Shown: positions 25,861 through 51,617 of the stretch, in pieces | Numbering within the stretch: the first letter of the stretch is position 1 | How the letters are laid out: the number at the start of each line of letters is the position of its first letter | From: a virus | Strand: one strand, 5' to 3' | Length of the DNA stretch: 64,000 nt | IMG/VR virus record: IMGVR_UViG_3300045988_176431 | Location: 32,001-96,000 of that record | The notes under the pieces: generated by a model | What the model was told of the DNA's origin: nothing | The model's input: the letters and a program-made list of their open reading frames with translations, nothing else | Database searches by the model: none | Translations under genes and position numbers: made by a program

Positions 25861-25924
25861 CAATTCTAAATAACTGAGAAAACAAAGATATAACGTAATT
25901 GAAATATGAAAGTAGGTGAAAAAT

Positions 25925-28900
25925 ATGTACTTTGTAAACGATTTACCTTATTTAAAAGCAGTTCGTAAAAAAGCTTTTTTGCCAAAGGGTCAACCGATAT
26001 CACAAGGTAATTTAATTTTTCTATTTTCACCATCGATTGAAAAATCATTTGAAATGATCAATGATGAGACAACTGTCCCAAATGGTGGAAAATATTTTTG
26101 GTATTTTTATAACTTATTATATCGAGGAACCATTTATGGAAAACGATATCTTTATCGTGATATGAAAGAAAGACTTGCGATATATAAGCGAGTACCAAAA
26201 GAAACAAATATACGTTCTTATGCAACTAAACCAATTATTAGTGGTACAGAAAAAAGAAACACATATTATGAATTAGCTAGATATTATGAAATATTTAATC
26301 AATATTCAAGTAAATTAAATGCAGTAAAATTGGTTGATTGTTTTTGGAAATACTTTACTCCTATCTTTAAAGATCAATATGGATATTTAGATCATAAATA
26401 TGTCTTAATTAATGCAAATAACTTTAAAGATTTTAAAGGGGATAAATTAAGAGACCAGTTAAATAATCCTTTGTTTTTGATTTATTATACTTTGTGGAAA
26501 CAATTTGATTTGATTGCTGAGTTGGATATTGATTTCATTATTTATGCAAATGGAAAAATCATGAGATTTAACCCATCTAAATGTGATGAAAAATCTTATC
26601 GAATATATCTTAGAGAATTAAAAAAGATATATTCAGTTGCTACAGTTCCAATTGAGACAATTGCTGAAGAAGAAATTAATACTGAGGAAGAAGAAAAAGA
26701 AGAGGAACCGAGAGTAAAGTTTAAATCAGAAAAAATGTCTGTTACTAAAAAAACAGCATTACCAATTGTAGATAAAATTACGGCGGTAGCAACAAAATTG
26801 TCAGCATCTTCAAAAAAGAAGATTGAACAAAAGGTAATTCATAAAGTTTCTTCTGTATCATCTACTATGAATGTCGATAAGATAAAAGATGATGAAAAGA
26901 AAAAAGAGGTTGTAAAAGAAATTCAAAAGAAAGTAGAAGATGAAATTAATACAGATGAAGATGTGATTAAAGAAGTATATAATACAATGCAAAAAGAATT
27001 TGTACCAAAATCAACTTCACGTTCTACTGCTAGAGATAATCTTTTACGAGAAGAACAGAAGAAGTTGAATATCAAAGGTTCAACTTTAAAATCTATTGAA
27101 AAACAAAAAGATGTTGATATTGAAACAACAGATATTACTCAGAATGTAAAAAGCACAAATGAGAATACAAAAATAATCAAGTTTAATAACTTTAATAAAA
27201 CTTATAACGATAAGCTTTTAAATAAAGATATTATGGATTGCTTTACTCAATTGAATAATAAGTCAATTAAGATGTTTATCCGAAATGTCGATATAGAAGA
27301 TACTTCAGATGAATTGAATTATAAAGAAACTTGGACGGTTAAGTTAGAGGATGAAAACAGAAATCGTCATACAATAAAAGTAGATATTCCTAAATTCTTA
27401 GAGTATAAATTTTTATGGCTCGGTGGTAATAGAAAGAATATAAAGAATCAGATGTTCTTTTTACCATTTGTAAAGATTGATAAAGACCGTGTTCTTATTG
27501 TATCTAATTATAATAAGTTTACAATTCAACGAGTGGATACAAAGTCTTTAAGGGGTCTTTCTCGAATTGAAACATTTATTCAGAAATCAGATTCTTTTAA
27601 AGATTACTTTATTTCAGGTAATACTTTCTTTGAAAATAAAGATTTTATTACAGCAATTGAATATGATGAATTTGGAAAGAGTTTTCGTAAATTCCATAAA
27701 TCTCAAACAACGATTTACTTCAGTCAGGTAGAAGCAAAGCATGAGATGGAAAAGAAAATGATAAAGATTAAATCAAATGAAATGTTCATTGGTTTTGAAA
27801 AGGGTGAACCACTTATCCTTAATATTAAAACACAGAAAGATAAAAAGAATCGTGGTATTGTCGATATCATTTTAGATACGATGGATGAAACTCAATTAAA
27901 AGAGTATAAATCTATTAAAACGCCAAAACGGTTGATGCATACTCAGATTACAACAATGAAACAGGATTGTCCACTTATTATCATGCTTTGTATTTGGGAA
28001 GGACTTAGTACGGTATTAAAGAAAGCAAAGATTAAATATCGTTTAGGTGCAAGCATTCGTGATATGAAAGTAAACGAAGATTATATTCGTTTCAAGAATT
28101 GCTATTTGATTTATGAAGATGATATTGAATCTGAATTATTAATCAATGGATTGAAGTTATTAGATACTGCTTCACATGATATTGGTGAATATGAGACACA
28201 AGAAGTTTATCTTCCATATGTTGAAAGGAAATATGGTAGAATAAACGCTATTAATACATTAAATAATGCTTATGAATTTATGCTAGGTTCAATTGAAATA
28301 TCTTTATTAAAAGATATGAATCTTCCAACGGATATTGTATCTCTTTGTATTCATGCAAATGAAGTACTCTGTGATAATCAATACGACAATGAGTTAGTTC
28401 AAACACATTCTCGTATTCGTTGTAATGAAATTATTCCTGCAATTCTTTATGATAAGATTGCAAAAGCTTATACACCATTTAAGAACTCAAATGGTAAAAA
28501 GAAATTATCAATTCCACAAGATTGTGTCATTAAAGAAATTTTAAAGCAAAAAACAGTAGAAGATTATGATTCATTAAATCCTTTATTGGAACTTGAAACG
28601 AATCATGGTGTATCAACAAAAGGATTTCGTGGAATTAATTTGGAGCAGTCTTATAGTGTTCCAAAACGTTGTTATGATGATAGTATGATTGGTGTTATAG
28701 GACCATCTTCATCTCCAGATGGAAATGTAGGTGTAAATCGTTCTCTTACGATGGAACCAAATATTAAAACAGCAAGGGGATATGTAGAAGTAAAGAAAGA
28801 TAATTTGAATGAGGTAAAAGATGTTAATCTTTTCTCTCCAGCAGAACTTTTAATTCCTCTTGGTGTAACACGAGATGATCCAGTTCGAACTGGACATAGT

Positions 28901-29872
28901 GTAAAACAGTCTCGTCATACAATTCCTGTTGTAAAATCTTCACCTGTCCTTATTTCAAATGGTTCAGATGAAATGTGTAAATATTACTTATCTTCTGATT
29001 TTGTTGTAAATGCAAAAATGGATGGTAAAGTAGTTGAAAATGACCCTTCAACAAAAATTATGGTTGTTGAATATAAGGATGGAACTCATCAAGCAATTGA
29101 TTTAGGAAAGAAACTTGCAAAAAATGGTGGTGGAGGTTTTGAATTATCAAATCAATTAATCACAAACTTAACCGTTGGTTCCAGATTTAAAAAGAATGAT
29201 ACACTTGCATGGCATAAAAATTTCTTTAAAAACGATAAATACCAAGGAACACGTTTATGTGTTGGTACATTAGCGAAAGTAGCAATAACTTCTTCTTATA
29301 ATACTTATGAAGATGGTACTTTTGTGACACATGGATTTTCAGAAAAAGCAACAACTGAAATGTGTTTTAAAAAACCTGTCGTAATTGGAAGACACTCAAA
29401 TGTATCTCAGATGGTATCAGTTGGTCAATCAATTAATACTGGTGACCCATTGATTCAGTTTGATGACTCTTTTGAAGAAGCCAATATTAACGTTCTTCTT
29501 AATTCACTTGGTGATAATGAAGAATTAAAGGATGCCGTTATTTCGAATAATAGAAATATTGTAAAATCGAAATATTCTGGTGTAATAGAAGAGATTAAAA
29601 TGTATTCTACAGCAGATTTAGAAGATTTGTCTCCGAGTTTACAAAAAATCTTTAAAAGATATTATGATAAGATAAATAATAGAAAGAAAGTATTGAAAAA
29701 ATACAATGAAAAAGATGGAATTGTGTATTGTGGAATGATGATTAATGAACCTACTGGTAAAGTAGAACCAAATCGTTATGGAACAATACGTGGTGAGAAA
29801 GTAAATGATGGTGTGTTAATTGAGTTTTATATTAAACATCAGGAACCACTAGAAGTTGGTTCCAAAATCGCT
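25925..29872 (+). CDS. RNA polymerase beta-like subunit (long form), exon 1
   Basis: GFRGINLEQSYSVPKRCYDDSMIGVIGPSSSPDGNVGVN aligns to bacterial beta [36 protein letters not shown]. The exon ends at EVGSKIA, corresponding to the GDKxA motif. Start at ATG 25925 after AGGTGA. Confidence 0.8.
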
Positions 29873-30239
29873 TAAAGTTAGGTGATTTAAAACTTACCTA
29901 ATTGCGGGAAACTCTCGTTAAGTTCTAGTTACTAACTTATGATAGTAATATACATAAGGGCAAGGGGTAACTCCTAAGGTATAGTAAAAAAACTAGAAAT
30001 AGAGACAATCGACGCAGGGAAGTATCTCTTATGAGATATGGCTTCAACGACTATCGAAAGGATAATATATAGAGAAATCTATATATGAATAACTGAGTAG
30101 AGTAGACCAGTTAATCTGGGTGTACGTTATTGGTACTTTACGAAACGGTAAGTGTTATAAATATGGTAATAGTATTTATAATAAAGATATAGTCTATTCT
30201 ATATAGTGATATATAGTATTAAAGAATTTTACAGCTTTG
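29873..30239 (+). mobile_element. group I intron C (ORF-less)
   Basis: Shared core. P1 pairs AAATCGCT with GGTGATTT, with a terminal U-G at 29872. The 3' end is ambiguous. G30239 keeps the reading frame with the U-G 5' site. G30234 would fit a P10 pairing but needs a 5' site one nt later. Confidence 0.75.
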
Positions 30240-31157
30240 AAGAATGTAATTGGTGAAGTTGTTGAAAAAGGTTATGAACCTTATTCTGAATTTAGACCAG
30301 ATGAAGAAATTTCAACATTTATTGCATCAAACTCAATTCTATCACGTATGACACCATCTATTCTTTTAAATGGATTTGGTAATAAATGTATTATCGAATT
30401 AAAACGTGCTTTACAAGATATTTGGGATTCAGTATCAGACTTTGCAGTAAGACGTAATACTATGGAATCATTAATTTATCGATTCTTTACGGCATTTGAT
30501 AAGTCAGGTACTAATACAAAACATTATAAAGAAATCTTTTCTTCTATGTCAGATAATCAATTCCAGACTTATTTTAGAGATTTCTTTGCAGATGAAGATA
30601 AGTATTTAATTCTTACAATTGTAGATTACGAAAGAACGATAAAAATGGAAGATATTAGAAGAGCAGCAAAAGTTCTTAATATACCTTTATATGAATATAT
30701 ATTCATACCACACTTAAATCATAATAAAGAACATCCTATTGTGAGTCCTGCAAAAGTTCCTGTTATTTATATTAATATCAAGAGAACACAGCAGACAGTA
30801 GCAAAGAAAAATGGTTTAAGTACAAATGTAGACGAACGTAGTGCTCTTACTGGTCAGGTGGTACGTCATGATAAAAATGGTAGAGAATCTGATCTTGAAA
30901 ATATCATGCTAACATCACTTGGACTTGATAATTGCTTAAAAGAATTAAATGGACCAAGAGCAGATGATTTAGTGATGAAACAACAGATGAATCAATCAAT
31001 TAATTCAAAAGGATATGTTAAATTATCTGATTTGGATGATAAGATTGAAAATAAAACAACATTGAATACCGTAGATACTTATTTCTTAGGAATGGGTCTT
31101 AAGACAGACTTAGTTACAAAAGGATTAAAAACAATATCTACGTTACGAAAAGAATAA
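30240..31157 (+). CDS. RNA polymerase beta-like subunit (long form), exon 2
   Basis: KNVIGEVVEKGYEP...ILSRMTPSILLNGFGNK aligns to beta RHGNKGVVSKI...VPSRMNIGQILE. Confidence 0.75.
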   Translation, partial: KNVIGEVVEKGYEPYSEFRPDEEISTFIASNSILSRMTPSILLNGFGNKCIIELKRALQDIWDSVSDFAVRRNTMESLIYRFFTAFDKSGTNTKHYKEIFSSMSDNQFQTYFRDFFADEDKYLILTIVDYERTIKMEDIRRAAKVLNIPLYEYIFIPHLNHNKEHPIVSPAKVPVIYINIKRTQQTVAKKNGLSTNVDERSALTGQVVRHDKNGRESDLENIMLTSLGLDNCLKELNGPRADDLVMKQQMNQSINSKGYVKLSDLDDKIENKTTLNTVDTYFLGMGLKTDLVTKGLKTISTLRKE

Positions 31158-31166
31158 AAAAGAAAA

Positions 31167-31200
31167 ATGTAGAACTGAACATTTTCGTTCAGTTCTACAT
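31167..31200. terminator. bidirectional hairpin terminator
   Basis: 14-bp stem ATGTAGAACTGAAC / GTTCAGTTCTACAT. Confidence 0.8.
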
Positions 31201-31205
31201 TTTAT

Positions 31206-31718
31206 TTATTTTCTGTTTTTGTTATTTTTGTTCTTATTTTTATTTTGCTGATTATTTTGTTTGTTGTTTGTTACAGGTTTTTCTTCTTTAACAACTTCTT
31301 CAACAGATTCTTCAGGAGCCTCTTCAACGACATCTACTGTTTCTGATTCTTCTGCTTCTGGTTCAGCAACAACTGTTTTTTCTTCTGTAACGTTTTCTGT
31401 TGATTTCTCCTCTTCAACAGAAGATTCATTTTTTTCTGGTTCATTAACAACTTCCTTCTTTTCATTTTCCTTTACGGATTCAACAACAGGTTTAGTAGCC
31501 TGAGTTTCAAAGTTATTGTTTTTTACATTGGTGAGTTCCAATTTTACTTGATCATCTGTATTATATGGATTACATTCAAATACAGAGCGTCCATTACTAA
31601 TCATTTTAATGATTACTTTAAGATCAATTTTAGTTGGTACCAAAATTGGACCACATACGAAATTTAATTCAGGAATTGGACCTGAATCTTTCACTACTAC
31701 TAATTTACGTTCTTTCAT
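31206..31718 (-). CDS. protein with Glu-rich linker and Asn/Lys-rich tail
   Basis: Start at MKERKL after GTGAGGA. Low-complexity acidic region and a NKNKNKNNKNRK tail. Confidence 0.65.
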   Translation of the reverse strand: MKERKLVVVKDSGPIPELNFVCGPILVPTKIDLKVIIKMISNGRSVFECNPYNTDDQVKLELTNVKNNNFETQATKPVVESVKENEKKEVVNEPEKNESSVEEEKSTENVTEEKTVVAEPEAEESETVDVVEEAPEESVEEVVKEEKPVTNNKQNNQQNKNKNKNNKNRK

Positions 31719-31719
31719 T

Positions 31720-32034
31720 TTATAAATCCTCACTTTCTTCATCTTCTATATCATCACTCAGACCCATCACATCGTCAATAGACATATCATGATCTGCTTG
31801 AGCAATTCTATTAATTTCTTCATTTCTGTCTGCATCATCATCTGGAATCTGATCAATCGCATCATCCAATTGCTCATCTGTAAATTCCGTAGAATCAAAT
31901 GCATCAGGACACATATGTTTTACCGAATCTATGGCATCGTTGATTTCTGCATCTTCGACAATACATTTTGTATACTCCATATCTCTGACCATCTCAGCTC
32001 TTTCTAAGAGAACTGAATTTATTCCATTAGTCAT
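31720..32034 (-). CDS. highly acidic small protein
   Basis: 104 aa, Asp/Glu-rich throughout. RBS AAAGGCGG. Confidence 0.7.
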   Translation of the reverse strand: MTNGINSVLLERAEMVRDMEYTKCIVEDAEINDAIDSVKHMCPDAFDSTEFTDEQLDDAIDQIPDDDADRNEEINRIAQADHDMSIDDVMGLSDDIEDEESEDL

Positions 32035-32099
32035 TTGATATTCACCGCCTTTCTTAAATAATCATATACTAATAACTTATAAGAATGTTTTTTCTTAGT

Positions 32100-32483
32100 T
32101 TATTCATCTTCAGTTTCAGATACTTCTTCCTCTTCTGAATTCGCTTTCCTAAATGATTCTAAAAGCATATAAAGACCAGCATATGATTTGATTGTCTCAT
32201 TTTCAATTTCTTGTTCTGAAAGATTTATCATTTTTTGATAAATTGGTAAGTAAGTATTAAGAATTGCAATATTTGAAATAACTTTTTCCACGTTTTTTAC
32301 ATCTGCATTAAATTCTTTGGTTAATTCTAAGAAGATATCAATCAAGACTTTCTCAAATGTATGTTGATTAACGTTTTTCAAAATTTCTTCTTGTAATTCT
32401 TTGATTCCTTCATCATTAATGATGAATTCTCCATTTTCCTTTAACTCAATATTACTTGGTTTATAAGCAATTTTTTCTTCCAT
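32100..32483 (-). CDS. acidic small protein
   Basis: 127 aa with RBS AAAGGAA and a C-terminal EEEEVSETEDE. Confidence 0.7.
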   Translation of the reverse strand: MEEKIAYKPSNIELKENGEFIINDEGIKELQEEILKNVNQHTFEKVLIDIFLELTKEFNADVKNVEKVISNIAILNTYLPIYQKMINLSEQEIENETIKSYAGLYMLLESFRKANSEEEEVSETEDE

Positions 32484-32615
32484 TTTTCTACGTTCCTTTC
32501 TTTATAAGATTATATTTTTTGTTGCACAGACATTAAAATCTCAAAAATATCTTTAACTTATATATCATTATAGTGATATAAGTTTATAATAAACAAGAAA
32601 GGTAGGTATAAAGAT

Positions 32616-32858
32616 ATGAAAGTAAGTAAAAAATTACTTAACTTTATTGCAGATTCTTTAGAGAGTTACATTGATGTGAGGGAAGAATTATTAATTTCTG
32701 AAATCAGTCCTGAAGAATTGGAAAAGCAATTAAAGAAAGGAAGAAAACTTGTTAAAAAAATAAGGAAAGGAGATATGAGTGTTTTCAACGAAGAAGTTCT
32801 GGAAGATGAATTACCTGCTCTAGAAGATCTGATGCGGAGAAATCAAAACTCATTATAA
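32616..32858 (+). CDS. hypothetical protein
   Basis: 80 aa with RBS AAAGGTAGG. Confidence 0.65.
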   Translation: MKVSKKLLNFIADSLESYIDVREELLISEISPEELEKQLKKGRKLVKKIRKGDMSVFNEEVLEDELPALEDLMRRNQNSL

Positions 32859-32869
32859 GAATTATATGT

Positions 32870-33340
32870 ATGAAAAAGAATAAGAGAAAAGTTTATGCCT
32901 ATTATCTAAAAAGTGATTCTTCTTTATATGCATATACAGAATTCAAAGCATTAGCAGATGAATTTGAATTAGAACGTGATATGCGAATATATAAAAAGAA
33001 AATATTTAAAATGAATGAACCAGAATATCAAGTCTTTAATTATAAACATAATTCAGAGATGTTGTTTTCAAATGTTTTAAATGATAGTAAGAAAGATTTC
33101 TCATTTGCAACAACTTATTTTGAAAATGAGAAATTAGATAATCTTTCCTACCAGATGGATAATAAGATAAACGAATTATATGAGAAAGTGAGAAAATTTC
33201 CATTAAAGAAAGAATATGAAGATTTATTTACAGACATTTTTAGTATTTATGGGGATGGTGTAAATACACCAATCTTAAATTTTAATACATTTAAGATTTT
33301 TATGGAACTATTTCGAAATACTATCTTTTCAGAAGATTGA
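32870..33340 (+). CDS. hypothetical protein
   Basis: 156-aa ORF with no clear RBS. Confidence 0.6.
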   Translation: MKKNKRKVYAYYLKSDSSLYAYTEFKALADEFELERDMRIYKKKIFKMNEPEYQVFNYKHNSEMLFSNVLNDSKKDFSFATTYFENEKLDNLSYQMDNKINELYEKVRKFPLKKEYEDLFTDIFSIYGDGVNTPILNFNTFKIFMELFRNTIFSED

Positions 33341-33404
33341 AGATAGATATTTAAAGTCAAGGTAACTATTAACTAATTTATTATGATTAAAGGAGGACTC
33401 AGTA

Positions 33405-34304
33405 ATGGGTAAGAAAAAGAACAAAAAAAAGAATGCATACAAAAGTTTTGTCGAGATGTTAAAAGACAAACAGAAAAAGATTTTTATTATGAAAGATGAG
33501 AAGAAAATCTCACTTTCTGATGTAGTTGATGAAACGATTAGTGAGATTACGTCCGTTCCACAGGATAGTATGATTGCAATTACATCAGAAGATGCTGCGA
33601 AAAAACGTGATGCTGGAAGTGCTGTATTTGAAACAAGATATGCAAAAGCACCATTTAGTATCTATGAATATGCAATGAAGTATCCAAAAAGAACACAGAC
33701 TCTTGTTCTTACATTAACACCTGCTGAGGTAGAAGATATTTTTGAGTACAACTCAAATGAAAATATTTCAGTTTTAATGGAAAGAACAAACATTGGTTTG
33801 ATTCTTAAGAAAATGGATAAAGCAAAGAACCGTTTAAAGAAATGGTTATCTACAGAAGCAACTGAAGAGATGGAAACTTTCGTTCTGAATATTCCGAACA
33901 TTGTGTTGTTTACTGATACACTTAAGAAAGATGAAGTTTCCAAGTCAGTTTTGTTTAATATTACGATTCAGGTAATTAAAACAAAACCAAGTATTAAAAA
34001 GATGAAGAAAAAATCATCTGAAAAATACAATGAAATCATTGGCAAAGTGATTGATACTACATTGAAAACTGCTGTTTCTTTGGGAGATGCAAATATTCAT
34101 ATTCCAGTGGAAGGTTCTTTTATTGATGATTTAAAAGATTATGCTTCCAAATGGACAGATGCTGTATATGATACAGACAATGAGAAGCTTTTGAATAATA
34201 TCGTATTCTCAGCTGATCATAGTTTAAGTTTTACTGAATTAGCAAATTCATTTATAGATTGTGTATTAAGTAAAGCAGAAACTACAAAGAAACGTGCAAA
34301 ATAA
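33405..34304 (+). CDS. hypothetical protein
   Basis: RBS AAAGGAGG. Confidence 0.75.
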   Translation: MGKKKNKKKNAYKSFVEMLKDKQKKIFIMKDEKKISLSDVVDETISEITSVPQDSMIAITSEDAAKKRDAGSAVFETRYAKAPFSIYEYAMKYPKRTQTLVLTLTPAEVEDIFEYNSNENISVLMERTNIGLILKKMDKAKNRLKKWLSTEATEEMETFVLNIPNIVLFTDTLKKDEVSKSVLFNITIQVIKTKPSIKKMKKKSSEKYNEIIGKVIDTTLKTAVSLGDANIHIPVEGSFIDDLKDYASKWTDAVYDTDNEKLLNNIVFSADHSLSFTELANSFIDCVLSKAETTKKRAK

Positions 34305-34375
34305 AAAATAACGATTAGATGGGGTTGGACTTTCGTTCAATCCCAATTTCTAATTAAGAGAGGATGGTAATGTGA

Positions 34376-35228
34376 ATGGAAAAAAAGAGTAAAGAGTTTA
34401 ATATACTCATCTCAGTTCCAGAGATTACTAATAAAAAAGATATGAAGAAGTTTTTAAAACCGATTTATATCATAGAAGATTATCTGTTAGATGAATCTCG
34501 TTATGGAGATTTAGAACAGACTATCAGAAATCTTCTTCGTGGATGTTTTCATATTAAAGAATGTAGAGAATATCCAATTGAGTTTAAGTTTTATCGAAAA
34601 GATAAAGAAACACATAAGTTGCAGATTCGAAGATTTTTATATAATCTTTATATTTGGAAACCATTTTGCATGTTAAATGAATTTCATATTCTGGATGAAA
34701 ATTATATTCTTTCAGAAGAAGAAATTCCAAATGTAACAGAGTTTTTGAACGAAAAAATACTTACCACTCTTCAGGATTATAACATTGAACAGATTTTGAT
34801 TAACGAATCAATCTCTAATGTATTATATAGTCTCCGTTCAATTTCATTAGATTTTAGTGATATTATGAATCTTACTTTTAGTGATCATGATTTCATTGAG
34901 ATGTTAAATGATCCAGAATATCGAGAGATTATGGAATTAAAGATTCCTGAAGATATGCAACCAATTGAAGTAGAAAAACTACTTTCTCAGTATCAACAAA
35001 GGTTGGTGAGAAAGTTAAAACAAGATAAAAATAATCCAGTAGGAATCATGCTTAGGGCTGGAACTGGTGTAAAAGAAAAACAGTTAGCAGAGTATATGAT
35101 TGCTATGGGATTGAAGCCAACATTAACTGGTGAAGTTATGCCTATACCAATTGAAACATCATCTCTATTAGGAGGTTTAAATAGACCATCGTATCAGTAC
35201 ATTGATGCGATAGCAGCCCGTAAACCGT
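34376..35228 (+). CDS. RNA polymerase beta-prime-like subunit, C-terminal half, exon 1
   Basis: MLRAGTGVKEKQLAEYMIAMGLKP...PIETSSLLGGLNRPSYQYIDAIAARKP aligns to beta-prime SGARGS..QLAGMRGLM..PI..NFREGL..EYFISTHGARKG. Confidence 0.8.
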
Positions 35229-36541
35229 AAACATAATCTGCGGTTTTAAAACCTATCTAATTGCGGGGAACTGTCTATAATGATTATTTACTAACTTATG
35301 ATGGTGACATACATAAGGGCAAGGGGTAACTCCTAAGGTATAGTAAAAAGAATAATCATTGACACAATCGACGCAGCGAAGTATCTTATTTATTTCATAA
35401 TAAATCATTATAAAGGAGATGATTTAATATGAAAGAAACATGGAAAAAATTTATTTATAATGATATCGAAACAAAATATAGCGTTTCTAATTTAGGAAGA
35501 GTTAGAAATGATAATACTAATTATATATTAAAACCACATGTTCATAAAAAGACAAAATATCACATGATCCCACTTACAATAAATGGAAAAACTAAATTGT
35601 TTAGCTTATCTAGAATGGTGGCAACATTATTTATACCAAATCCAAATAATTATGAAGAAGTAGATCATGTTACTTGTGATAGATATAGAAATGAAGCTCA
35701 TAATCTTGAATGGGTTACTCATGAAGAAAACATGAGAAGAGCGTTAGTAAACGGACTCGTTTACAAAAACGATGGAAGTATGAGATATGTATTTCATAAT
35801 GAAAATGATATTAGAAAATTATGTGAATTATTATCAAATACATGTATCCCTGTTGATGAGTTGTCTAAAATAACGAACATTAGTCAAAATACTATAAATA
35901 AAATACGACTAGGTAAAAGATGGAGAAATATATCAAAGGATTATGATTTTTCTGAATATAATAAATTTATACAAAAAAATTATATTATATCTCATTCTGG
36001 AGAAAATAATTCACAATCAAAGTATCCAGATACATTGGTACATTCTATATGTCATGAACTAGAATTAAACAGAAAAACAATAAGTGAAATTGCAAAAATG
36101 TTTAATGTTCAGAAGAATTACGTATATGAATTAAGAATAGGAAAAGTTAGAACCTTGATTAGTTCTCAATATGATGTAAGCAATCATGATTTAACCGAGT
36201 TTGGATATCATCAAAAAGATTTAAACAAAATAAATGTTTTATTGAAAAAGGGCTATACTGTCCGTGAAATTATAAATAAATTAAATCTTCCAGATAACAA
36301 GAAAACTATAGCAATGATATATGGAAGAAAAAGAAATATGAAATAAATAAGATATGAGTTCAACGACTATCGAAAGTATAGTTATAAGAGAAATCTTATA
36401 ATGAATAAACGAGTAGAGTAGACCAGAATATCTGGGTGCACGAAATTGGTGCTTTGCGAAACGGTAGGTATTATAAATATGGTAATAGTATTTATAATAA
36501 AGATATAGTCTATACATTATGGTGACATAATGAATTATTAG
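35229..36541 (+). mobile_element. group I intron D carrying an HNH homing endonuclease gene
   Basis: Shared core with compensatory changes. P1 pairs AAACCGT with GCGGTTT, with a terminal U-G at 35228. P10 pairs CATAATC with GATTATG. Splicing gives ARKPLIMNKKSMGNAGYFGKKV, collinear with [22 protein letters not shown]. Confidence 0.85.
35429..36346 (+). CDS. HNH homing endonuclease (intron-encoded, I-HmuI-like architecture)
   Basis: VSNLGRVRN N-terminal motif. HNH region EVDHVTCDRYRNEAHNLEWVTHEENMRRA. Repeated HTH modules. RBS AAAGGAG. Confidence 0.85.
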   Translation: MKETWKKFIYNDIETKYSVSNLGRVRNDNTNYILKPHVHKKTKYHMIPLTINGKTKLFSLSRMVATLFIPNPNNYEEVDHVTCDRYRNEAHNLEWVTHEENMRRALVNGLVYKNDGSMRYVFHNENDIRKLCELLSNTCIPVDELSKITNISQNTINKIRLGKRWRNISKDYDFSEYNKFIQKNYIISHSGENNSQSKYPDTLVHSICHELELNRKTISEIAKMFNVQKNYVYELRIGKVRTLISSQYDVSNHDLTEFGYHQKDLNKINVLLKKGYTVREIINKLNLPDNKKTIAMIYGRKRNMK

Positions 36542-37791
36542 TGATTATGAATAAGAAATCAATGGGAAATGCAGGCTACTTCGGGAAGAAAGTATCTGAA
36601 TTATGTAGGACTGTATCTCTTTCTAATAAGGTTTTAAATTGTAAAACAAAGCATTTGATTAAATATGAGATTAAAAATAAGAAATATCTTATGAAATTAA
36701 ATGGTAAGTTTTATAAGATGAATCCTGATGATGAAGATTATAAGGTACTACATTATAAAGATTACGATTTGGTTGGTAAAACTATTTATGCAAGAGGGGC
36801 ACAAACATGTGCTTGTGGACAGAATCTTATTTGTCCGACATGTCTTGGAAAAATTGCGGATTTGAACTGGGATTTGAAAGATGGTATTGGTGTATTTGAG
36901 TCTCAGGAATTATCAAAAGATATTGAACAGAAGATTCTTTCTGGTAAACATCTGTTAACAACAAAGTCAGAGAAGATTGAATTTAGCGATGAATTCTATC
37001 AGTATTTTTCAATTGCTGTTGGAGAGATTTCTCCTATCTTTGATAATATTGATAATATCAATGATTTGGCAATTTACGTTGTACCAGAAGAGATTGAGAA
37101 AGTAGAAGAATATGATGCAGATTCTACTTATAATACTTATATTTCATCTGGAAGATTCTTTGTAAGAAATCTTAAAACAAAGAAAGATATTGAAGTTAAG
37201 ATTTTGAAAAAGAAAGAATTGTATATTACAAGCAATGTCATTAAATCAATTCGTAATAATAATGGTGTAATTAAGTTTAAGGATTTGGAAGAAGATGCTC
37301 CAATCTTTGAAGTTATCATCTTGAATAATGAGTTAACAAAGCCACTATACGAGTTAATCTCTTTATTGGATTCTGAGAAAAAAGAAACAATTGAAGACAG
37401 TACAATTGATACGTTCTCACAAAGATTTTTGGATATTATCATTGAATCTGGAATTGGAGCGTCAATGGTTGCTGCTGAAATTGTAATGAATCGTCTAATA
37501 CGAGAAAGTGATAATGTGATGGATCGTCCAGATTTCTCACAAGAGAAAATGCCAGATTATAATATTTATACGATTCGAAAGATACTTAGAAACAATGAGA
37601 GTATTACAATTGGTTTGGGATTTGAAAACTTAAAAGCTCAGTTATTAAATCCAAATGTTTCTCAGAGAACAGCACCATCTTATATGGATGCTTATTTCAA
37701 AGAAGAACTTCCTACAGAAATTTTAAAGAAGTTTGAACAAGAGGAACCAAAGAAAAAGCAGATGGATTATTATCTAAATGCTTCACACTAG
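36542..37791 (+). CDS. RNA polymerase beta-prime-like subunit, C-terminal half, exon 2
   Basis: GNAGYFGKKV matches the beta-prime SGYLTRRLV motif. A Cys cluster CACGQNLICPTCLG and a trigger-loop-like region follow. Confidence 0.8.
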
Positions 37792-37800
37792 AAAAGTTAA

Positions 37801-37830
37801 GATGAGATTATCATAATCGATAATCTCATC
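37801..37830 (+). terminator. intrinsic terminator
   Basis: 12-bp stem GATGAGATTATC / GATAATCTCATC followed by a T run. Confidence 0.8.
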
Positions 37831-37875
37831 TTATTTTTAATATTTTAAAAAAACAAAGAAAGGTAGGTAATAATT

Positions 37876-38424
37876 ATGATGAAAATGAATGAATTACCAC
37901 AAAATGTAACAAAAGAAACAAAGATTAAGCTAGTAACAAATCCAGAGAAAATTAATTCTGGTGATCCTGAAGAATTAGAAACTTTGGATGTTAAAGTACA
38001 TTATTCTGATTTAAATGATACTCTTTATATTATACCAGATAAAACAGAAAGTACAACATATGACAGTTTAGTAGCAGCGATGTACATGATCTGTTCTATG
38101 GTAGAAGACGAGTATCAAACATTAACAGAAACTGATAAAGAAGAAATACGTGAAGAGGAAGAGAAACATCAAAAAGAACAGGAGGAAAAACGACAAAAAG
38201 AGTTAAATGAAACTATTGAGAAATATTGTGAGGAAAGTCAAATTGAAATGATTGAAAAGATTCGATTCGTTAAAGTAAAAGATGGTGTGAATATAAAATT
38301 GAATCTTCTGAATATTATTACTGAAATCTCTGAATTGGAGAAAGATGATGATGGAAAATACATCGTTCCTGATAACTGTATTTATATTGAGCAGAGGGGA
38401 ACCAGAAACAGCTGGTACTTATAA
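37876..38424 (+). CDS. hypothetical acidic protein
   Basis: RBS AAAGGTAGG 8 nt upstream. Confidence 0.7.
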   Translation: MMKMNELPQNVTKETKIKLVTNPEKINSGDPEELETLDVKVHYSDLNDTLYIIPDKTESTTYDSLVAAMYMICSMVEDEYQTLTETDKEEIREEEEKHQKEQEEKRQKELNETIEKYCEESQIEMIEKIRFVKVKDGVNIKLNLLNIITEISELEKDDDGKYIVPDNCIYIEQRGTRNSWYL

Positions 38425-38905
38425 TTATATCGTAGTCGATTCAGAACAGGTTCTTTGTAATAGTGAATATGATCTTGAATCTGCTAAAAGAATGGCTGAT
38501 AAGATTGGTGGTGCTGTTGTTCATACTGGAAAATATGCATACAATTCAGAAGATAATAATGTGACAACAGCTGAAAAAAAAACGACTTTCATTATGGATA
38601 AATTTGAAGATTATTTGGAATCAGAGGATATTACAATTCCTTGTAATTTTAAAGATGAAGAGGAAGAAAGAAGTAATTATGCAAATTCAGCTAGACTTTT
38701 TGGTACTTGCTATCTCCATCTAGAGGATAGAGTCAAAATTGTTGTTATGACAACGGGCAGAGATAATTTTGGATCTCGTGAGATTGCTGCAGATCGAATT
38801 GTTAAAGTATTTGCACATTTCATGGATGAAAAAAATATTATAATTCCAGATGAAGATATGTTTAAACGGTTAAAAAATGAAATTAGAGATGTATTCATTA
38901 AATAA
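38345..38905 (+). CDS. hypothetical protein
   Basis: ATGATGATG start after GGAGAAAG. Overlaps the upstream gene by 80 nt in another frame. Confidence 0.6.
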   Translation: MMMENTSFLITVFILSRGEPETAGTYNYIVVDSEQVLCNSEYDLESAKRMADKIGGAVVHTGKYAYNSEDNNVTTAEKKTTFIMDKFEDYLESEDITIPCNFKDEEEERSNYANSARLFGTCYLHLEDRVKIVVMTTGRDNFGSREIAADRIVKVFAHFMDEKNIIIPDEDMFKRLKNEIRDVFIK

Positions 38906-38921
38906 AAGAAAGGATGATAAC

Positions 38922-39626
38922 ATGAAATATTTTATTGGCTTATTATCAACAAAAAATAGTAAGAAACGCATGGAAAGTAAATCAGAGTTTTTAGCACTCT
39001 TTAAATTGGATTATGAGGATGAAGGAAGAATTGCTTTAGAACATGTAAGAAAGAAACTTCCTGTAATTTCTCCAGAAAATTACAGTATTGAGAAAATGTT
39101 TGATTTATCAGATTCAGAAGATTTCCTGAACTGTATTAATCAATACATCAATCATACAATCAATGTAAAAATCAAGAAAACAAAATTAAATACTTATTAC
39201 ATTGATACTTCGGTCAAGATTAATGTGTTTGATTTACGTTTTCATGATTTACCAGTTTCATTTGTTCATGTCATTTCTAGACCAAAAATTATTGGAGATC
39301 CGGATATAAAGAAATGGCTTTCAGATGTAAATGAAGAAATCGATGACATCGTCTGTATTAATGAAAGTAATTATGCTACTCTTGAGACAAGTATGATTCA
39401 ACGTTCTGGTGAGATTCATGAGCAGTATTGGAGATGCTTGTTGATGAAAACAGATGTAGGTGTCATCTTCCATGATGTGCATTTAAATATGATTATGGAA
39501 ATTGCATCTGATTTGTATCAGTTAGCAGAACAGTATCAGAGATGGTTATACTTCTTCTTTGTTGATAATAACCATCAACTGTATAAAGTTACCGTTGATG
39601 ATAAGTTAACAGTAGAACGTTGCTAA
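38922..39626 (+). CDS. hypothetical protein
   Basis: ATG (MKYFIG) 8 nt after AAAGGATGA. Confidence 0.7.
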   Translation: MKYFIGLLSTKNSKKRMESKSEFLALFKLDYEDEGRIALEHVRKKLPVISPENYSIEKMFDLSDSEDFLNCINQYINHTINVKIKKTKLNTYYIDTSVKINVFDLRFHDLPVSFVHVISRPKIIGDPDIKKWLSDVNEEIDDIVCINESNYATLETSMIQRSGEIHEQYWRCLLMKTDVGVIFHDVHLNMIMEIASDLYQLAEQYQRWLYFFFVDNNHQLYKVTVDDKLTVERC

Positions 39627-39649
39627 AGTTTTATAATGTATATAAATAA

Positions 39650-39662
39650 TTATATATTATTT
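39650..39662 (+). promoter_or_regulatory. TTATATATTATTT motif, copy 4
   Basis: Exact 13-mer immediately upstream of an ORF-free structured region. Confidence 0.5.
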
Positions 39663-39679
39663 TCATGTAAATACTAATT

Positions 39680-39890
39680 AGTGTTACAGAAACCCAAAGA
39701 GATTGATACCTGTCTGTCGGGATAGATCATCAGGAAGTTTAAATACACCGAGTGTCAAAAGGGGTTTCCATTTATATCTTATTCGGCATTTCCGGTAAGA
39801 TGTTAAATGTTATTGATGGCAGAGGAGGGTAATATATGGCAGAACTTAAAGATCAATAAATATCTTTAAGGATTAGGTACCCTTCTCAAT
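39680..39890 (+). ncRNA. candidate structured non-coding RNA, unclassified
   Basis: No ORF, and locally GC-richer than its flanks. Pairings are 39689-39695 (GAAACCC) with 39762-39768 (GGGTTTC), and 39821-39830 with 39877-39886 (10 bp including one G-U). A nested perfect 9-bp hairpin pairs 39845-39853 with 39862-39870. The region is flanked by the promoter motif and a terminator. Confidence 0.45.
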
Positions 39891-39899
39891 ATAAGCAAA

Positions 39900-39938
39900 A
39901 AGAAGTCTGATAAATAAAATTATCAGACTTCTTTTTTT
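39900..39938 (+). terminator. intrinsic terminator
   Basis: 13-bp stem AAGAAGTCTGATA / TATCAGACTTCTT followed by a T7 run. Confidence 0.85.
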
Positions 39939-40022
39939 ATTGATTATAGATAAAATCAATATCTTATATTCTATTTTTTTTATTACTTTTTTTTAATATT
40001 TTAAGAAATGAGGTATTTTTAT

Positions 40023-41261
40023 ATGTCATACAAAAACTTATTAATTGAAGAATTAAGAAATGACGAAGACAAAAAAGAAGATTTATTTAGTATCAATGCA
40101 GAGACAGATACTTATAAAACTGGTATTGCACCACTTGATTATGCTCTTGGTTATGTGGTACGTGTATATAATGATGATAATACCGTTAATGAAGAATATA
40201 AAGCACTCGGTATTAGTGGTGGTTGTAATGTAATGACGATTGGAAAATCATCAACAGCAAAGACATCCACTATGCTTTATATTGCCGCTAATATTGTAAG
40301 AAAATATGAAAGCGGATCAGTAATTCATTTTGACCTTGAACAGGCTATGAACTTATCAAGAGCAAGAACTATGACGAAATTTTCAATTGATGAAATTAAA
40401 GGTGGTAAATATATTTTAAGACAGTCTGATACATCCGTTGAAAAGATTAAACGTAGTATTATTAAATTATACAAAAAGAAAAAAGATAATCCAGAAACGT
40501 TTAAATATAACGCTGGAAAGAAAAATGAATTAGGGGAAGATATTGTTGTATATGAACCAACAGTAGTTCTTATTGATTCAATCCCTTCTATGACAGTAGA
40601 GATGAATGAAAATGATAAAAAAGATTTGAAGAAAATTGAAGAGATCTCATCTCAGACAGATCGAATGAGATTAACTGGTGAGATTGGAAGATTTTATACA
40701 GATCTTTTGCAATATATTAAATCAGTAAATATCATGACTATGTCAATCAACCATATTAAAGTGAATCCAAATATGGGAATTGTTAAGAGCCCTGCTGAAT
40801 TGTTATACTTGAAGCAAGATGAGGCACTTCCAGGCGGTAAAGCTCCAGTATATTTAGCACATATTCTTTTAAAATCCGTTGCGATTGGTAGTGCTAAATT
40901 TAATTTGGAAGATGATGGATTTGATGGTTTCGGCATTGCCTTACAGATTATTAAATCCAGATCAAATCAAGCAGGTCAAACAGTAAATCTTATTTATGAT
41001 AAGGTACGTGGTATTGATCCACTTAGAACATGTCTTTTGTATGCAAAAGAACAGGGATTATTAAGTGGTAATAAGAATGCTACATATTTTACAGATGATA
41101 AAGAGCATAAATTCCCTATGAGAACCGTAAATGAATATTTTAGGGAACACAGAGAAATGTACAAGATTATGTATGACCACATTATTCCGTTACTTGATAA
41201 AAGACTTTCTTCTGTAGCAGAAGAGGAATTAGAAGTTGTTGATGAGTTAATGGATTACTAA
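40023..41261 (+). CDS. RecA-family recombinase (UvsX/RadA-like)
   Basis: Walker A TIGKSSTAKTS, Walker B VVLIDSIPSM, and GGKAPVYLAH. Start at MSYKNL after GAGGT. Confidence 0.75.
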   Translation: MSYKNLLIEELRNDEDKKEDLFSINAETDTYKTGIAPLDYALGYVVRVYNDDNTVNEEYKALGISGGCNVMTIGKSSTAKTSTMLYIAANIVRKYESGSVIHFDLEQAMNLSRARTMTKFSIDEIKGGKYILRQSDTSVEKIKRSIIKLYKKKKDNPETFKYNAGKKNELGEDIVVYEPTVVLIDSIPSMTVEMNENDKKDLKKIEEISSQTDRMRLTGEIGRFYTDLLQYIKSVNIMTMSINHIKVNPNMGIVKSPAELLYLKQDEALPGGKAPVYLAHILLKSVAIGSAKFNLEDDGFDGFGIALQIIKSRSNQAGQTVNLIYDKVRGIDPLRTCLLYAKEQGLLSGNKNATYFTDDKEHKFPMRTVNEYFREHREMYKIMYDHIIPLLDKRLSSVAEEELEVVDELMDY

Positions 41262-41263
41262 AT

Positions 41264-41276
41264 TTATATATTATTT
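41264..41276 (+). promoter_or_regulatory. TTATATATTATTT motif, copy 5
   Basis: Exact 13-mer, followed by a T run and a 15-bp hairpin. Confidence 0.5.
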
Positions 41277-41287
41277 TTTTGGTAAAG

Positions 41288-41325
41288 AAGATGAGTAAAG
41301 TTTAAATAAAAACTTTACTCATCTT
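41288..41325 (+). terminator. 15-bp hairpin (terminator of the recombinase gene, or 5'-leader hairpin of the next unit)
   Basis: Stem AAGATGAGTAAAGTT / AACTTTACTCATCTT. It lies downstream of the 13-mer, so its role is ambiguous. Confidence 0.5.
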
Positions 41326-41353
41326 TAAAAAATATAAGGAAAGGTAGGTGATA

Positions 41354-42103
41354 ATGAATATGAGTGTTTCTTATGTTAATATGATTCTGCAAGGAGGGAT
41401 TTATTACTTTGAATTAAATGAAGAAACAAAAAACAGACCGTTTTTGGTAATTTCAAAAGACAATGGATATGGAAAAGATGTTTTAGCATTTGTGATTACG
41501 GAACGATTTACTAGTACAGATGTATCACTTCCGATTGTACTAAATAATTATGTTTCTTTTATTCGTGTATCAGGCTCAAAAGAAGTTCCAAAATCAAAAA
41601 TTATAAATTCATCGTTTAATGGTGTTTTAATTCCAGATGTGTTTAATATAGCAATCCGAATGTATATGAGACGATTTGCTATCGTTAATGAAAAAGAATT
41701 GGAAAAAGATTTGAATGATTATTTGGATAAAATTGAGAAAGAGGGTCATTATTATTATCTAGACCGAAAGAAACGGTTTAGAAAAAAAGAATACCTGAGA
41801 AATCAATTATTTTTGGAAGATAGTAAGGCAAAAATTGTATTTCCTGAAAAAGAAGAGAACAATGTGAATATTTCAAAATCAAACACAATTAATGGACCTT
41901 TAGATGATGAGGTTATGAAAGATTTTACTTTAAAGCAATTATTTACAATAAAGAGAATGATACATGAGCAATCAAAGAAAGACATTCAAAAAAAGTATCT
42001 ATTGGATAATTGGAAGTGTGATTATATTTGTACCAATATCGAACGATTAATCACAAGGAAAAAACGTGGGGAAAATATGTATAAAAAGAAAAGAAAAAAA
42101 TGA
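41354..42103 (+). CDS. PemK/MazF-like domain protein with ~150-aa Lys-rich C-terminal extension
   Basis: The N-terminus GGIYYFELNEETKNRPFLVISKDNGYGKDVLAFVITERF resembles the MazF/PemK pattern G-iy-v-l...RP-lVis...v-v-piTs. Confidence 0.6.
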   Translation: MNMSVSYVNMILQGGIYYFELNEETKNRPFLVISKDNGYGKDVLAFVITERFTSTDVSLPIVLNNYVSFIRVSGSKEVPKSKIINSSFNGVLIPDVFNIAIRMYMRRFAIVNEKELEKDLNDYLDKIEKEGHYYYLDRKKRFRKKEYLRNQLFLEDSKAKIVFPEKEENNVNISKSNTINGPLDDEVMKDFTLKQLFTIKRMIHEQSKKDIQKKYLLDNWKCDYICTNIERLITRKKRGENMYKKKRKK

Positions 42104-42118
42104 TTGGAGGATATAGTT

Positions 42119-43255
42119 TTGCCAGAAATACAAAAATATAACTTAAAAGATGAGTTAAAGGCTGCTGATGAGGAATATAAAAATTCAACAGCCCTTGTTG
42201 GTATGTCGGCATTAACTGAACCAAGATATACAAACTCAACAAGAACTCAAATGTTTACAAGTCATTTGAAACAGTTTTTGAATCTCATTCAACCGGAATT
42301 TCCAAGGGTGTTTACAAATGCAGAAAACGTAGTAGGAAAACATTCTTCTGCATATTACAAAACTAAAAATGACTTAGAAATTATTGAAAAGATTGAAAAG
42401 TATGGAGACATCTTAGAAGTGCCTTACATATATCATTTATTTGTATTTGACAAAAAGAAAAAACGTTATCGTGTTATTACACGAAAAGAAGTAGAAGAAA
42501 ATCTGACAGAGGATTTTGGTTATCATATGAATAATGAAGAGATTGACAGTTTTAAAGAAGGAGATATCATCCCAAAAGGAGATATTCTTTATAAGTCGAA
42601 TTCATATGATGAATCTATGAATTATCGTTATGGAGTAAATGCAACAGTACAGTATGTATTAAATCCATATACATCAGAAGATGCTGCTGATGTATCAGAA
42701 TCTTTTGCAAAGAAAATGACAACTTTGAAAGTGAAGAAAATTCCTTGGGGATTAAATAACAATGATATTCCTCTTAATTTATTTGGAGATGATGATGAAT
42801 ATAAGCCATATCCAGATATTGGAGAACCAGCATGTGGAATCTTTGGATGTTCAAGACCTCAATATAATGATCAGTTGTTGTTTGATTTTAAAGATTCAAA
42901 TTTAAGAACGATTAAAGATTCAGACCGTCCAGTATCATATCCAGGAAAAGGATTTATTGTCGATTATGAGATTTATTGTAATAATCCAGACATTGAAGAG
43001 AATTCTTTTAATAGTCAGATTATGACGTATTTAAAATCTCAGACAAAATACTGGAAAAAGATTTATAAAACAACAAAGAAGATTATTAATTCTGGTTATG
43101 ATTATGACAGAGAAATTGATTATCTTTATAAACGTGCAGATGAGTTTTTAGATGAAGATAAAAAATGGAAAGACGATTCTGTATTTGGTAACTTAAAAAT
43201 TGTAGCAACGATTGCAGAATATATTCCATTAAGGAAGGGGCATAAATTTACTGGT
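42119..43255 (+). CDS. RNA polymerase beta-like subunit, C-terminal half, exon 1
   Basis: Ends at GHKFTG, corresponding to the GDKxxG motif. Likely TTG start 8 nt after GGAGG (MPEIQKY). Confidence 0.8.
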
Positions 43256-43673
43256 TAACATAACAGCCAGTCATATTAGGCGACTAATATGTTACAAACT
43301 CCATGAATTGCGGGGAACTCTCGTTAGGTTCTAGTTACTAAACTAAGATAGTGATATACTTAGTGGCAAAGGGTAACTCCTAAGGTATAGTAAAAAGACT
43401 AGAAATAGAGACAATCGACGCAGGGAAGTATCTTAATAATATAAGATATGACTTCAACGACTATCGAAAGTATAGGTTAAGAGAAATACTTAACTGAATA
43501 AACGAGTAGAGTAGACCAGAAGTCTGGGTGCACGAAATTGGTGCTTTACGAAGTGTGGAGCTCTTTATATTTGGTGACAGAATATAAAGATGAAGATATA
43601 GTCTAATCTATACTGAGAAGTATAGCTGTATAAAAACAGATATAAGTGTAACGAACTTATATGAATAATCATG
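43256..43673 (+). mobile_element. group I intron E (ORF-less)
   Basis: Shared core. P1 pairs ACTGGT with GCCAGT, with a terminal U-G. P10 pairs CATAAC with GTTATG. Splicing gives GHKFTG-RYGNKSVVSRVLPDKDMP, matching GDKMAGRHGNKGVISKI.P.EDMP. Confidence 0.9.
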
Positions 43674-44771
43674 CGTTATGGAAACAAATCTGTTGTTTCA
43701 CGAGTATTACCCGATAAAGATATGCCTCATACAAAAGATGGAAAAACTGTTGACGTTCGATTAAACTTATTAGCCATTATCAACCGTACAACAGGGTTTG
43801 TTCCTCATGAGTTATTTATTAACTTCATTTGTGATAGAGCAAGGGAGCAAATGAAAAAAGCAACTACGTTGAAAGAAAAAGAAAATATACTCTTTTCAAT
43901 CATTAAAGATTTGAATGAAAAACAGTATAAAAGTATGTATGCTTATTATAAAGATTTGAAAGATACAAAATTGAAAAAAGAATACATTGATGATTGTATT
44001 TATGAAGGTATCTTTATTCATCAGAATCCTGTTTCTGAAGATGAACCAATTCTTTATAAATTACAAAAGATGACAAAGAAATATAATTGGTTGGAACCTT
44101 ATCAGTTATATGTAACAATCGATGGTCACGAGATTCCTCAGATGATAAAAACTTACATGGGTGAGATGTACATGATTCGATTGAAACAAACTGACCAAAA
44201 GAATTTCTCGGTACGAAATACAGGAGCAATTAATACAAAAGAATTACCAGAACGAAGCTATAAGAATCGAAATCATCAGGATTTATATTCAGATAAAGCA
44301 ATTCGTTTTGGTGAGTATGAAACTCTTGCTATTATGACAGGTCTTTCAGAAGAAGAACTTGCTCTTTTCCATGCCTATTATCGTACTTCTATTAAAGGTA
44401 GAAAAGATGTGATTTCTCATATCTTTGAACCAGAAAAGAAATTAAGTGAAATTGATTCTTCACTTACAAATCGAACAGCAGAACTTTTTAATGTTATCTT
44501 TAAAGCATTATCAAATGAAATTGAATTTATTGATAGTGATAATATCGTAAAATCAATGGATAATATTCATGTTCAAGAATACACATATCATGGACAAACA
44601 TATTTCATGACAGAATATGAATTTTATCTATTTAAATTAGAAGATGAATTAAAAGAGAAGATTCTGTTAGAAACTCCTGGTTTAACAGATGAAGAATTAG
44701 ATGAGAGATTACATGAAGAATTAAAAGCATCTAAGAGAATTATGGGTGAACCTGTAAAAGATATGAAATAA
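43674..44771 (+). CDS. RNA polymerase beta-like subunit, C-terminal half, exon 2
   Basis: RYGNKSVVSRVLPDKDMPHTKDGKTVDVRLNLLAIINRTT aligns to RHGNKGVVS...EDMP...G.PVDIVLNPLGVPSRMN. Confidence 0.9.
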   Translation, partial: RYGNKSVVSRVLPDKDMPHTKDGKTVDVRLNLLAIINRTTGFVPHELFINFICDRAREQMKKATTLKEKENILFSIIKDLNEKQYKSMYAYYKDLKDTKLKKEYIDDCIYEGIFIHQNPVSEDEPILYKLQKMTKKYNWLEPYQLYVTIDGHEIPQMIKTYMGEMYMIRLKQTDQKNFSVRNTGAINTKELPERSYKNRNHQDLYSDKAIRFGEYETLAIMTGLSEEELALFHAYYRTSIKGRKDVISHIFEPEKKLSEIDSSLTNRTAELFNVIFKALSNEIEFIDSDNIVKSMDNIHVQEYTYHGQTYFMTEYEFYLFKLEDELKEKILLETPGLTDEELDERLHEELKASKRIMGEPVKDMK

Positions 44772-51244: not shown

Positions 51245-51617
51245 TAGTTTGATAGATCAAACAAAACTCTTCTAATTGCGGGGAACTCTCGTTAGGTCTT
51301 AACTACTAAACTAAGATGGTGACATACTTAGTGACAAGGGGTAACTCCTAAGGTATAGTAAAAAGGTTAAGAATAGAGACAATCGACGCAGCGAAGTATC
51401 TTATAAATAATAAGGTATAAGATATGAGTTCAACGACTATCGAAAGGATAGCATAAGAGAAATACTTATGTGAATAACTGAGTAGAGTAGACTAGTATAT
51501 ATTATACTAGGTGTACGAAATTGGTACTTTACGAAATGGAGAGCATATTATATTTGGTAATAGAATATAATGTGAAGATATAGTCTAATCCTCATGGATA
51601 ACATGATGGTGTAAATG
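51245..51617 (+). mobile_element. group I intron F (ORF-less)
   Basis: Shared core. P1 pairs TTTGATT with GATCAAA, with a terminal U-G. P10 pairs TTGATA with TATCAG. Splicing gives NYYLI-YQMVEKS. Confidence 0.85.

Follow-up and report, generated by a model that had tools for sequence, protein, structure and literature searches.

Jumbo phages of the AR9 type encode two multisubunit RNA polymerases (RNAPs). The RNAP genes of these phages are often disrupted by introns at variable positions (bioRxiv 10.1101/2020.12.14.422802). AR9, MarsHill, Machias (Staphylococcus) and BpSp (Bacillus) carry introns of one kind in the same genes, varying in number and position, and the annotated genes are joined from several pieces (six for AR9 g189, six for the Machias beta-C gene and four for that of MarsHill). 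A putative group I intron has also been described in the virion RNAP beta gene of another jumbo phage, PhiPA3 gp210 (PMC11620839). The DNA analysed here, referred to as the window, is a stretch of 64,000 nucleotides (positions 32,001 to 96,000 of IMG/VR virus record IMGVR_UViG_3300045988_176431). Within it, two paralogous beta-type RNAP genes are each interrupted by a group I intron, termed C and E, in the same catalytic motif, GxKxxGRxGNKG, and the two insertion points lie one codon apart. With a probability of roughly 0.8, this arrangement reflects two independent lineages of homing introns, now devoid of open reading frames (ORFs), that settled in a conserved hot spot.

The interrupted genes and their introns

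In the ORF list, the long beta-like ORF (25916..29875) stops after ...EVGSKIA, its last sense base being 29872, and the beta-C ORF (42104..43258) stops after ...GHKFTG, its last sense base being 43255; downstream ORFs carry on each of the two interrupted proteins. The resulting features are, in order:

25916..29872, + strand: exon 1 of the virion-type RNAP beta-like gene, 1319 codons, ending ...PLEVGSKIA (ORF list, tblastn, hhalign)
29865..29888, + strand: P1 and P10 elements of intron C, read from the sequence, with P1 also in the Rfam alignment
29873..30224, + strand: intron C, group I, 352 nt, without ORF; RF00028 60.2 bits; predicted junction GSKIA/NFTALKN
30225..31157, + strand: exon 2 of the virion-type gene, starting NFTALKNVIGEVVEKGYEP (uninterrupted homologues, relatives' exon-2 ORFs)
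42104..43255, + strand: exon 1 of the non-virion RNAP beta-C gene, ending ...PLRKGHKFTG; 36% identity to AR9 g089
43256..43673, + strand: intron E, group I, 418 nt, without ORF; RF00028 62.2 bits; predicted junction GHKFTG/RYGNKS
43674..44771, + strand: exon 2 of the non-virion beta-C gene, starting RYGNKSVVSRVLPDKDMP; Pfam RNA_pol_Rpb2_6

Scanned alone, each intron exceeds the gathering score of RF00028 (50 bits) over the full length of the model (model positions 1-253; 29862-30216 for C, 43248-43625 for E). The base before each 5' splice site is a U, paired with G in P1, and the last base of each intron is a G (G30224 and G43673). In intron C, the 5' exon sequence AAAUCGCU (29865-29872) pairs with the guide GGUGAUUU (29881-29888), the U.G pair lying at the splice site, and a P10 of 7 bp joins UAAAGUU (29873-29879) to AAUUUUA of the 3' exon (30225-30231). 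In intron E, ACUGGU (43250-43255) pairs with GCCAGU (43266-43271) to form P1, and CAUAAC (43259-43264) with GUUAUG (43675-43680) to form a P10 of 6 bp. Score, U.G pair, terminal G and P10 together place both elements among the group I introns. In relatives, P1 is preserved by compensatory changes, at site C as AGAUCGCU/GGUGAUCU (contigs L014 and L017) and as ACUGGCU/GGUCAGU (L023 and L024), and at site E as ACCGGU/GCCGGU (L009). The ligated exons are predicted to read ...AAAATCGCT/AATTTTACA... for C and ...TTTACTGGT/CGTTATGGA... for E.

Introns C and E are easily overlooked. A gathering scan of the whole window with Rfam reported three of its eight introns, C and E not among them, an E-value scan of 29500-44000 returned no group I match, and a pooled scan of seven loci suffered the same filter loss; the whole-window scans missed both introns because of their speed filters. 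Since C and E have to be scanned singly to reach the gathering score, automated annotation will under-call introns in such genomes. Aligned with the other introns of the window, the two show a mean column identity of 73%.

An earlier, sequence-only reading of the window had let intron C end at 30239/30240, giving GSKIA/KNVIGEVV; the corrected junction lies 15 nt upstream, and five codons had been dropped. KNVIGEVV had been placed according to where the downstream ORF has its first start codon. Four observations fix the junction: (i) about 80 uninterrupted homologues read GSKIANFTALKN(T/V)IGE, and the closest of them (P0071, 78% identity) reads GSKIANFTALKNVVGEVLEKGYEP; (ii) positions 30225-30239, directly after G30224, are AAT TTT ACA GCT TTG (NFTAL), in frame; (iii) the exon-2 ORFs of relatives begin M-NFTALKN, and their introns end ...G/AATTTTAC; (iv) the 7-bp P10 fits 30224/30225 and is absent for 30239/30240. 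Intron C therefore spans 29873-30224, and the mature virion motif, as predicted from these comparisons, is GSKIA/NFTALKNVIGEVV. The junction proposed earlier for intron E, GHKFTG/RYGNKS, was correct (43256-43673): it agrees with P10, and GHKFTG/RYGNKSVVS aligns without gaps to AR9 GSKITGRYGNKGVIS and to bacterial GDKMAGRHGNKGVIS.

Exon 1 of the long gene is 35.6% identical to AR9 g189, annotated as 'virion RNAP beta subunit' (tblastn), and after predicted splicing the gene is continuous and encodes 1629 residues. It has no direct match in Pfam; many of its homologues carry PF00562, and its motif is a divergent form, GSKIANFTALKN. As phmmer of the virion beta segment against the PDB gave nothing useful, profile-profile alignment was used instead. 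In the beta-C gene, exon 2 matches PF00562 RNA_pol_Rpb2_6 (E 4.2e-11), and the protein matches chain C of 7S00, the solved structure of AR9 gp089/g089 (E 1.4e-53, phmmer). PF00562 and the motif GxKxxGRxGNKG place the genes in the RNAP beta family.

The virion beta gene also has a break point in other phages, at a position near 30400 (...SRMTPSILLNG/FGNKC...) where the window gene is unsplit. The PBS1-like phage Goe21 has the two parts ~80 kb from each other; the end of AR9 g189 falls at this same point, ~65 residues past the motif, as do those of 42 metagenomic clusters, and in AR9 a gene for a Hef-like homing endonuclease follows immediately 3' of the split. These observations bear on the idea that splits of RNAP genes arise from intron activity.

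The window has a G+C content of ~29%. Megablast found no close DNA match among cultured phages, and its proteins are 33-37% identical to those of the AR9/PBS1 group of Bacillus jumbo phages, with which it also shares a gene order (UvsX-like recombinase, two small genes, C-terminal subunit of the non-virion RNAP beta). Its source is an AT-rich jumbo phage, a distant relative of Bacillus phage AR9/PBS1, and corrected gene models are now available for this uncultured AR9-like phage. A closer relative, the 255.7-kb metagenomic contig L004 (~80% identity of the exon 2 protein), has introns at both sites. Directly 3' of the beta'-like gene of the window, a near-perfect 38-nt hairpin at 37796-37835 is probably a terminator; a match of this hairpin to a plant microRNA family was weak and is regarded as spurious.

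Position of the insertions within the catalytic motif

Profiles of 37 virion-type and 31 non-virion-type sequences were compared by hhalign, which aligned the two families over 411 columns (98.2% probability, E 3.8e-14). The motif region is free of gaps in this alignment, GSKIANFTALKNVIGEVVEKGYEP standing against GHKFTGRYGNKSVVSRVLPDKDMP. With the motif numbered G1 x2 K3 x4 x5 G6 R7 x8 G9 N10 K11 G12 V13, intron C is inserted after residue 5 and intron E after residue 6, 3 nt apart. The offset of one codon within a shared catalytic motif, as originally perceived, is thus borne out. The conserved proline at position 19 that had served as its anchor was misplaced: the proline of the virion RNAP occupies position 24, opposite the DMP proline in the alignment. 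This error followed from the wrong 3' junction of intron C, and the conclusion survives because the insertion point is defined by the end of the 5' exon. Of the initial observation, the intron nature of both gaps, the motif and the offset have held; the 3' junction of intron C and the proline anchor have not.

The DNA around the two sites had been described as dissimilar, and indeed the spliced targets, with their insertion points superposed, are identical at 16 of 60 positions, which is chance level (shuffle mean 16.1, P = 0.57); in codon register, they agree at 24 of 63. The guide sequences of the two introns differ as well. The sites do not, then, form one allelic site shared by both paralogs, with the same position and a similar target. 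Were insertions placed uniformly over the 411 aligned columns, two of them would fall within one codon of each other with a probability of ~0.7%.

The motif is a place where introns accumulate in this phage group. In beta-C, the junction window of site E, KFTGRYGNKSVV, is the most conserved of all 12-residue windows (rank 1 of 389), and the next break points of the family fall in the second and fifth most conserved ones; the window around the junction in virion beta comes fifth among those that do not overlap. Related phages have at least five further insertion points within the 13 codons, so that the following positions are occupied:

Virion beta, between residues 5 and 6: the window (intron C) and many relatives
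Virion beta, between residues 8 and 9: contig L016 (96.6 bits)
Non-virion beta-C, between residues 6 and 7: the window (intron E) and many relatives
Non-virion beta-C, within codon 8 and between residues 12 and 13: BpSp, two introns flanking a 14-nt micro-exon
Non-virion beta-C, within codon 2 and between residues 9 and 10: MarsHill, two introns of ~170 nt flanking a 23-nt micro-exon

The junctions in BpSp and MarsHill are predicted from the reading frame, from the pairing in P1 and from the requirement that GNKG be encoded. Mobile introns and inteins are known to favour conserved sites, the introns conserved active-site residues (PMC12908238, PMC2814812). The closeness of sites C and E is not random and is explained by this preference.

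Each of the two micro-exons is enclosed by two group I introns. That of BpSp comprises 14 nt (~4389-4402 of locus L003, TCGGGAACAAGGGT), and that of MarsHill 23 nt (~2236-2258 of locus L028, CGAAAATCACCACACGTTATGGT); the BpSp gene is truncated in its GenBank annotation.

Origin of the two introns

Only some of the related genomes have an intron at site C, and only some at site E. Among the cultured phages, AR9, PBS1, Goe21, LPJP1, phiR1-37 and several Staphylococcus jumbo phages are uninterrupted at both sites, and no cultured phage of the collection searched has an intron at site C. Occupancy was counted in the best 120 metagenomic clusters for each gene: ten ORFs end exactly at site C and ten at site E, ~15 begin just past site C (query positions 201-202) and 14 just past site E (position 201), and 86 (C) and 90 (E) run through. 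Presence and absence vary even among close relatives, as is typical of homing: at site C, P0071 (78% identity) is uninterrupted and P0026-P0028 (76-81%) are interrupted.

In some relatives, introns at the same sites encode endonucleases. The site-C intron of L023, ~1.1 kb long, encodes a NUMOD4/HNH_3 protein of 260 residues, and L024, the exon-2 protein of which is identical to that of L023, has a site-C intron of 315 nt without ORF. At site E, the intron of L009 has an HNH-type ORF of 236 residues in the P6 region. The two endonucleases are 28% identical, and their identities to the ORF of the beta' intron of the window are 35% and 24%; neither is closer to the other than to that ORF. As introns of relatives at the same sites carry endonucleases and those of the window do not, the window copies are regarded as ORF-less derivatives. 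What is seen in these sequences seems to be the usual life cycle of homing introns, running separately at two sites.

The arrangement probably arose in the following way. The beta-type gene of each polymerase would have acquired, independently, a self-splicing group I intron in its active-site motif. In some relatives, each lineage still carries the gene of a NUMOD4/HNH (I-HmuI-like) endonuclease, which would recognise the intron-free DNA of the polymerase gene concerned. The copies of the window would then have lost the endonuclease gene, leaving small ribozymes that must splice exactly if the polymerase is to work. Mobile introns are known to persist preferentially where an essential gene is most conserved and least deletable, and because this stretch is the same motif in both paralogs, the insertion points would come to lie side by side. 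The sequence-only reading had offered the independent capture of a favoured site as one possibility, and this part is supported by the patchy occupancy, the distinct endonucleases and the further insertion points. Its premise that the arrangement is hard to reconcile with endonuclease-driven homing was mistaken: two homing systems, each with its own target, fit the data. Reverse splicing, also considered there, is a possible but unnecessary route.

Several points weigh against two independent lineages. Neither intron of the window contains an endonuclease ORF in the ORF list. Intron C is closer to intron E (80% identity) than to the site-C introns of relatives (49-75%), and the similarity among the introns of the window could stem from spread within the genome or from exchange of cores between copies. 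Furthermore, the endonucleases are assigned to their targets by the sites at which they reside, and splicing, exact junctions, endonuclease specificity and the order of events are deduced from sequence and comparison.

These points concern the intron family of the window as a whole. Eight group I introns of one family occur in the 64 kb, with core halves 72-97% identical in a mosaic manner, and they are more alike among themselves than they are to introns occupying the same sites in relatives; except for C and E, their boundaries are approximate:

5164-5917
20761-21110, - strand
29873-30224, intron C
35231-36540
43256-43673, intron E
51248-51614
~52446-52745
~52900-53985

One of them, in gyrB, separates HATPase_c from DNA_gyraseB, that in the beta'-like gene contains a NUMOD4/HNH_3 ORF (35429-36346), and another has an HNH_3 ORF (53065-53823). 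Introns C and E are 80% identical overall and 91% in their 5' halves; the 5' half of E is also 97% identical to the intron near 52410, and its 3' half 92% identical to the gyrB intron. This mosaic pattern suggests exchange between copies. A join in the near-identical strain L012 (2785-3847), at first sight a longer form of intron E, was rejected: beta-C exon 1 and the 5' half of intron E here run on, via intron sequence, into exon 2 of beta', at 2.6x coverage. The join probably stems from chimeric assembly across the repeated cores of the introns, the alternative being a real recombinant, and was left out of the evidence. L012 also has an additional beta' intron after ...SMGNAG, which the window does not have.

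Of the competing explanations, transposition within the genome fares best, although it is improbable. One paralog would have passed its intron to the other, or both would have received it from a third copy, by reverse splicing into mRNA, reverse transcription and recombination, or through an ectopic endonuclease cut. The single family of eight introns, the likeness of C to E in their 5' halves, the greater distance of C from its counterparts in relatives and the fact that both are without ORF would all fit such a transfer. The guides, however, are wholly different (GGUGAUUU versus GCCAGU) and the targets unrelated, and the mosaic similarity is accounted for equally well by recombination between intron copies. 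Both sites are occupied in many other genomes, in some of them by introns with their own, different endonucleases, and ordinary homing at each site is therefore sufficient. No reverse transcriptase turned up in the window, in analyses that included no search aimed at one.

A single endonuclease of relaxed specificity that recognises the motif DNA in both paralogs and seeded both introns is very unlikely. The enzymes found at the two sites in relatives do belong to one broad family (NUMOD4/HNH_3 with helix-turn-helix (HTH) repeats), but at 28% identity they are well apart, and the targets such an enzyme would have to recognise agree at 16 of 60 positions when superposed, as expected by chance, and at 24 of 63 in codon register.

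Still less credible is an ancient intron, already present in the ancestor of both beta genes when virion and non-virion types separated, that later slid by one codon; the sequence-only reading had also considered insertion before the paralogs diverged. Near-identical positions in two paralogs and membership of the introns in one sequence family would be expected in that case. AR9/PBS1, phiR1-37 and 86-90 of the 120 clusters, however, have no intron at either site, occupancy differs between close relatives, and the introns are 80% identical when their host proteins share only ~11%. Unrelated genes, including gyrB and a beta' gene, hold six more introns of this family. The intron cores do not track their host genes, and an intron inherited from before the split of the paralogs is therefore ruled out. 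That the breaks are gene splits, pseudogenes or sequencing errors can practically be dismissed: division of an RNAP gene into separate genes is common in jumbo phages (PMC7598289), but both gaps match the group I model from end to end and above the Rfam gathering threshold, their P1 and P10 agree with the exons, and the same arrangement recurs in independent assemblies.

A more speculative thought, which is rather unlikely to hold, is that the 13-codon beta motif of AR9-like jumbo phages is a contested landing strip with at least seven insertion points, each served by its own HNH lineage, where occupancy acts as immunity during co-infection and cores are shuffled between sites. If so, each resident intron would disrupt the sequence recognised by endonucleases aimed at neighbouring points, and the immunity would parallel the interference competition shown for PhiPA3. 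In any event, at least seven sites within 39 nt offer a compact natural set of targets for studying changes of endonuclease specificity and competition among introns.

Comparison with known systems

The DNA polymerase genes of the Bacillus phages SPO1, SP82 and Bastille also contain introns (listed in PMC12908238). These are likewise of group I, are associated with HNH nicking endonucleases of the NUMOD/HNH type and occupy a conserved part of an essential polymerase gene, at positions that differ from phage to phage; in contrast to the window, a single gene is concerned and there is no pair of paralogs. The intron of PhiPA3 gp210 resides in another motif, behind a pair of conserved Asp residues that correspond in alignment to E. 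coli RpoB D675, carries its HNH endonuclease and acts in phage competition, and affects one of the two polymerases (Birkholz et al. 2024, PMC11620839), whereas introns C and E have no ORF and both polymerases of the window are affected. Within the phage group itself, AR9 and PBS1 have no intron at site C or E, and MarsHill and BpSp use other positions of the same motif. The pairing of adjacent sites in two paralogs is undescribed in the related literature compared, which did not extend to the AR9 genome paper (Lavysh 2016).

The closest parallel in kind comes from protein splicing. Inteins occupy several conserved positions near the active site in the paralogous RNAP beta homologues RPA2, RPB2 and RPC2 (Goodwin et al. 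2006, PMC1635734); they are not each other's closest relatives, and their distribution was attributed to a preference for conserved sites. They differ from the present introns in that they are inteins of eukaryotes and their viruses, and adjacent-codon sites in the paralogs of one genome were not reported among them (PMC1635734). The two introns of the window follow the same conserved-site rule, here for group I introns in two phage paralogs, and involve no new mechanism; one genome and many metagenomic relatives together reveal mobile introns converging on one catalytic motif in two anciently diverged paralogs.

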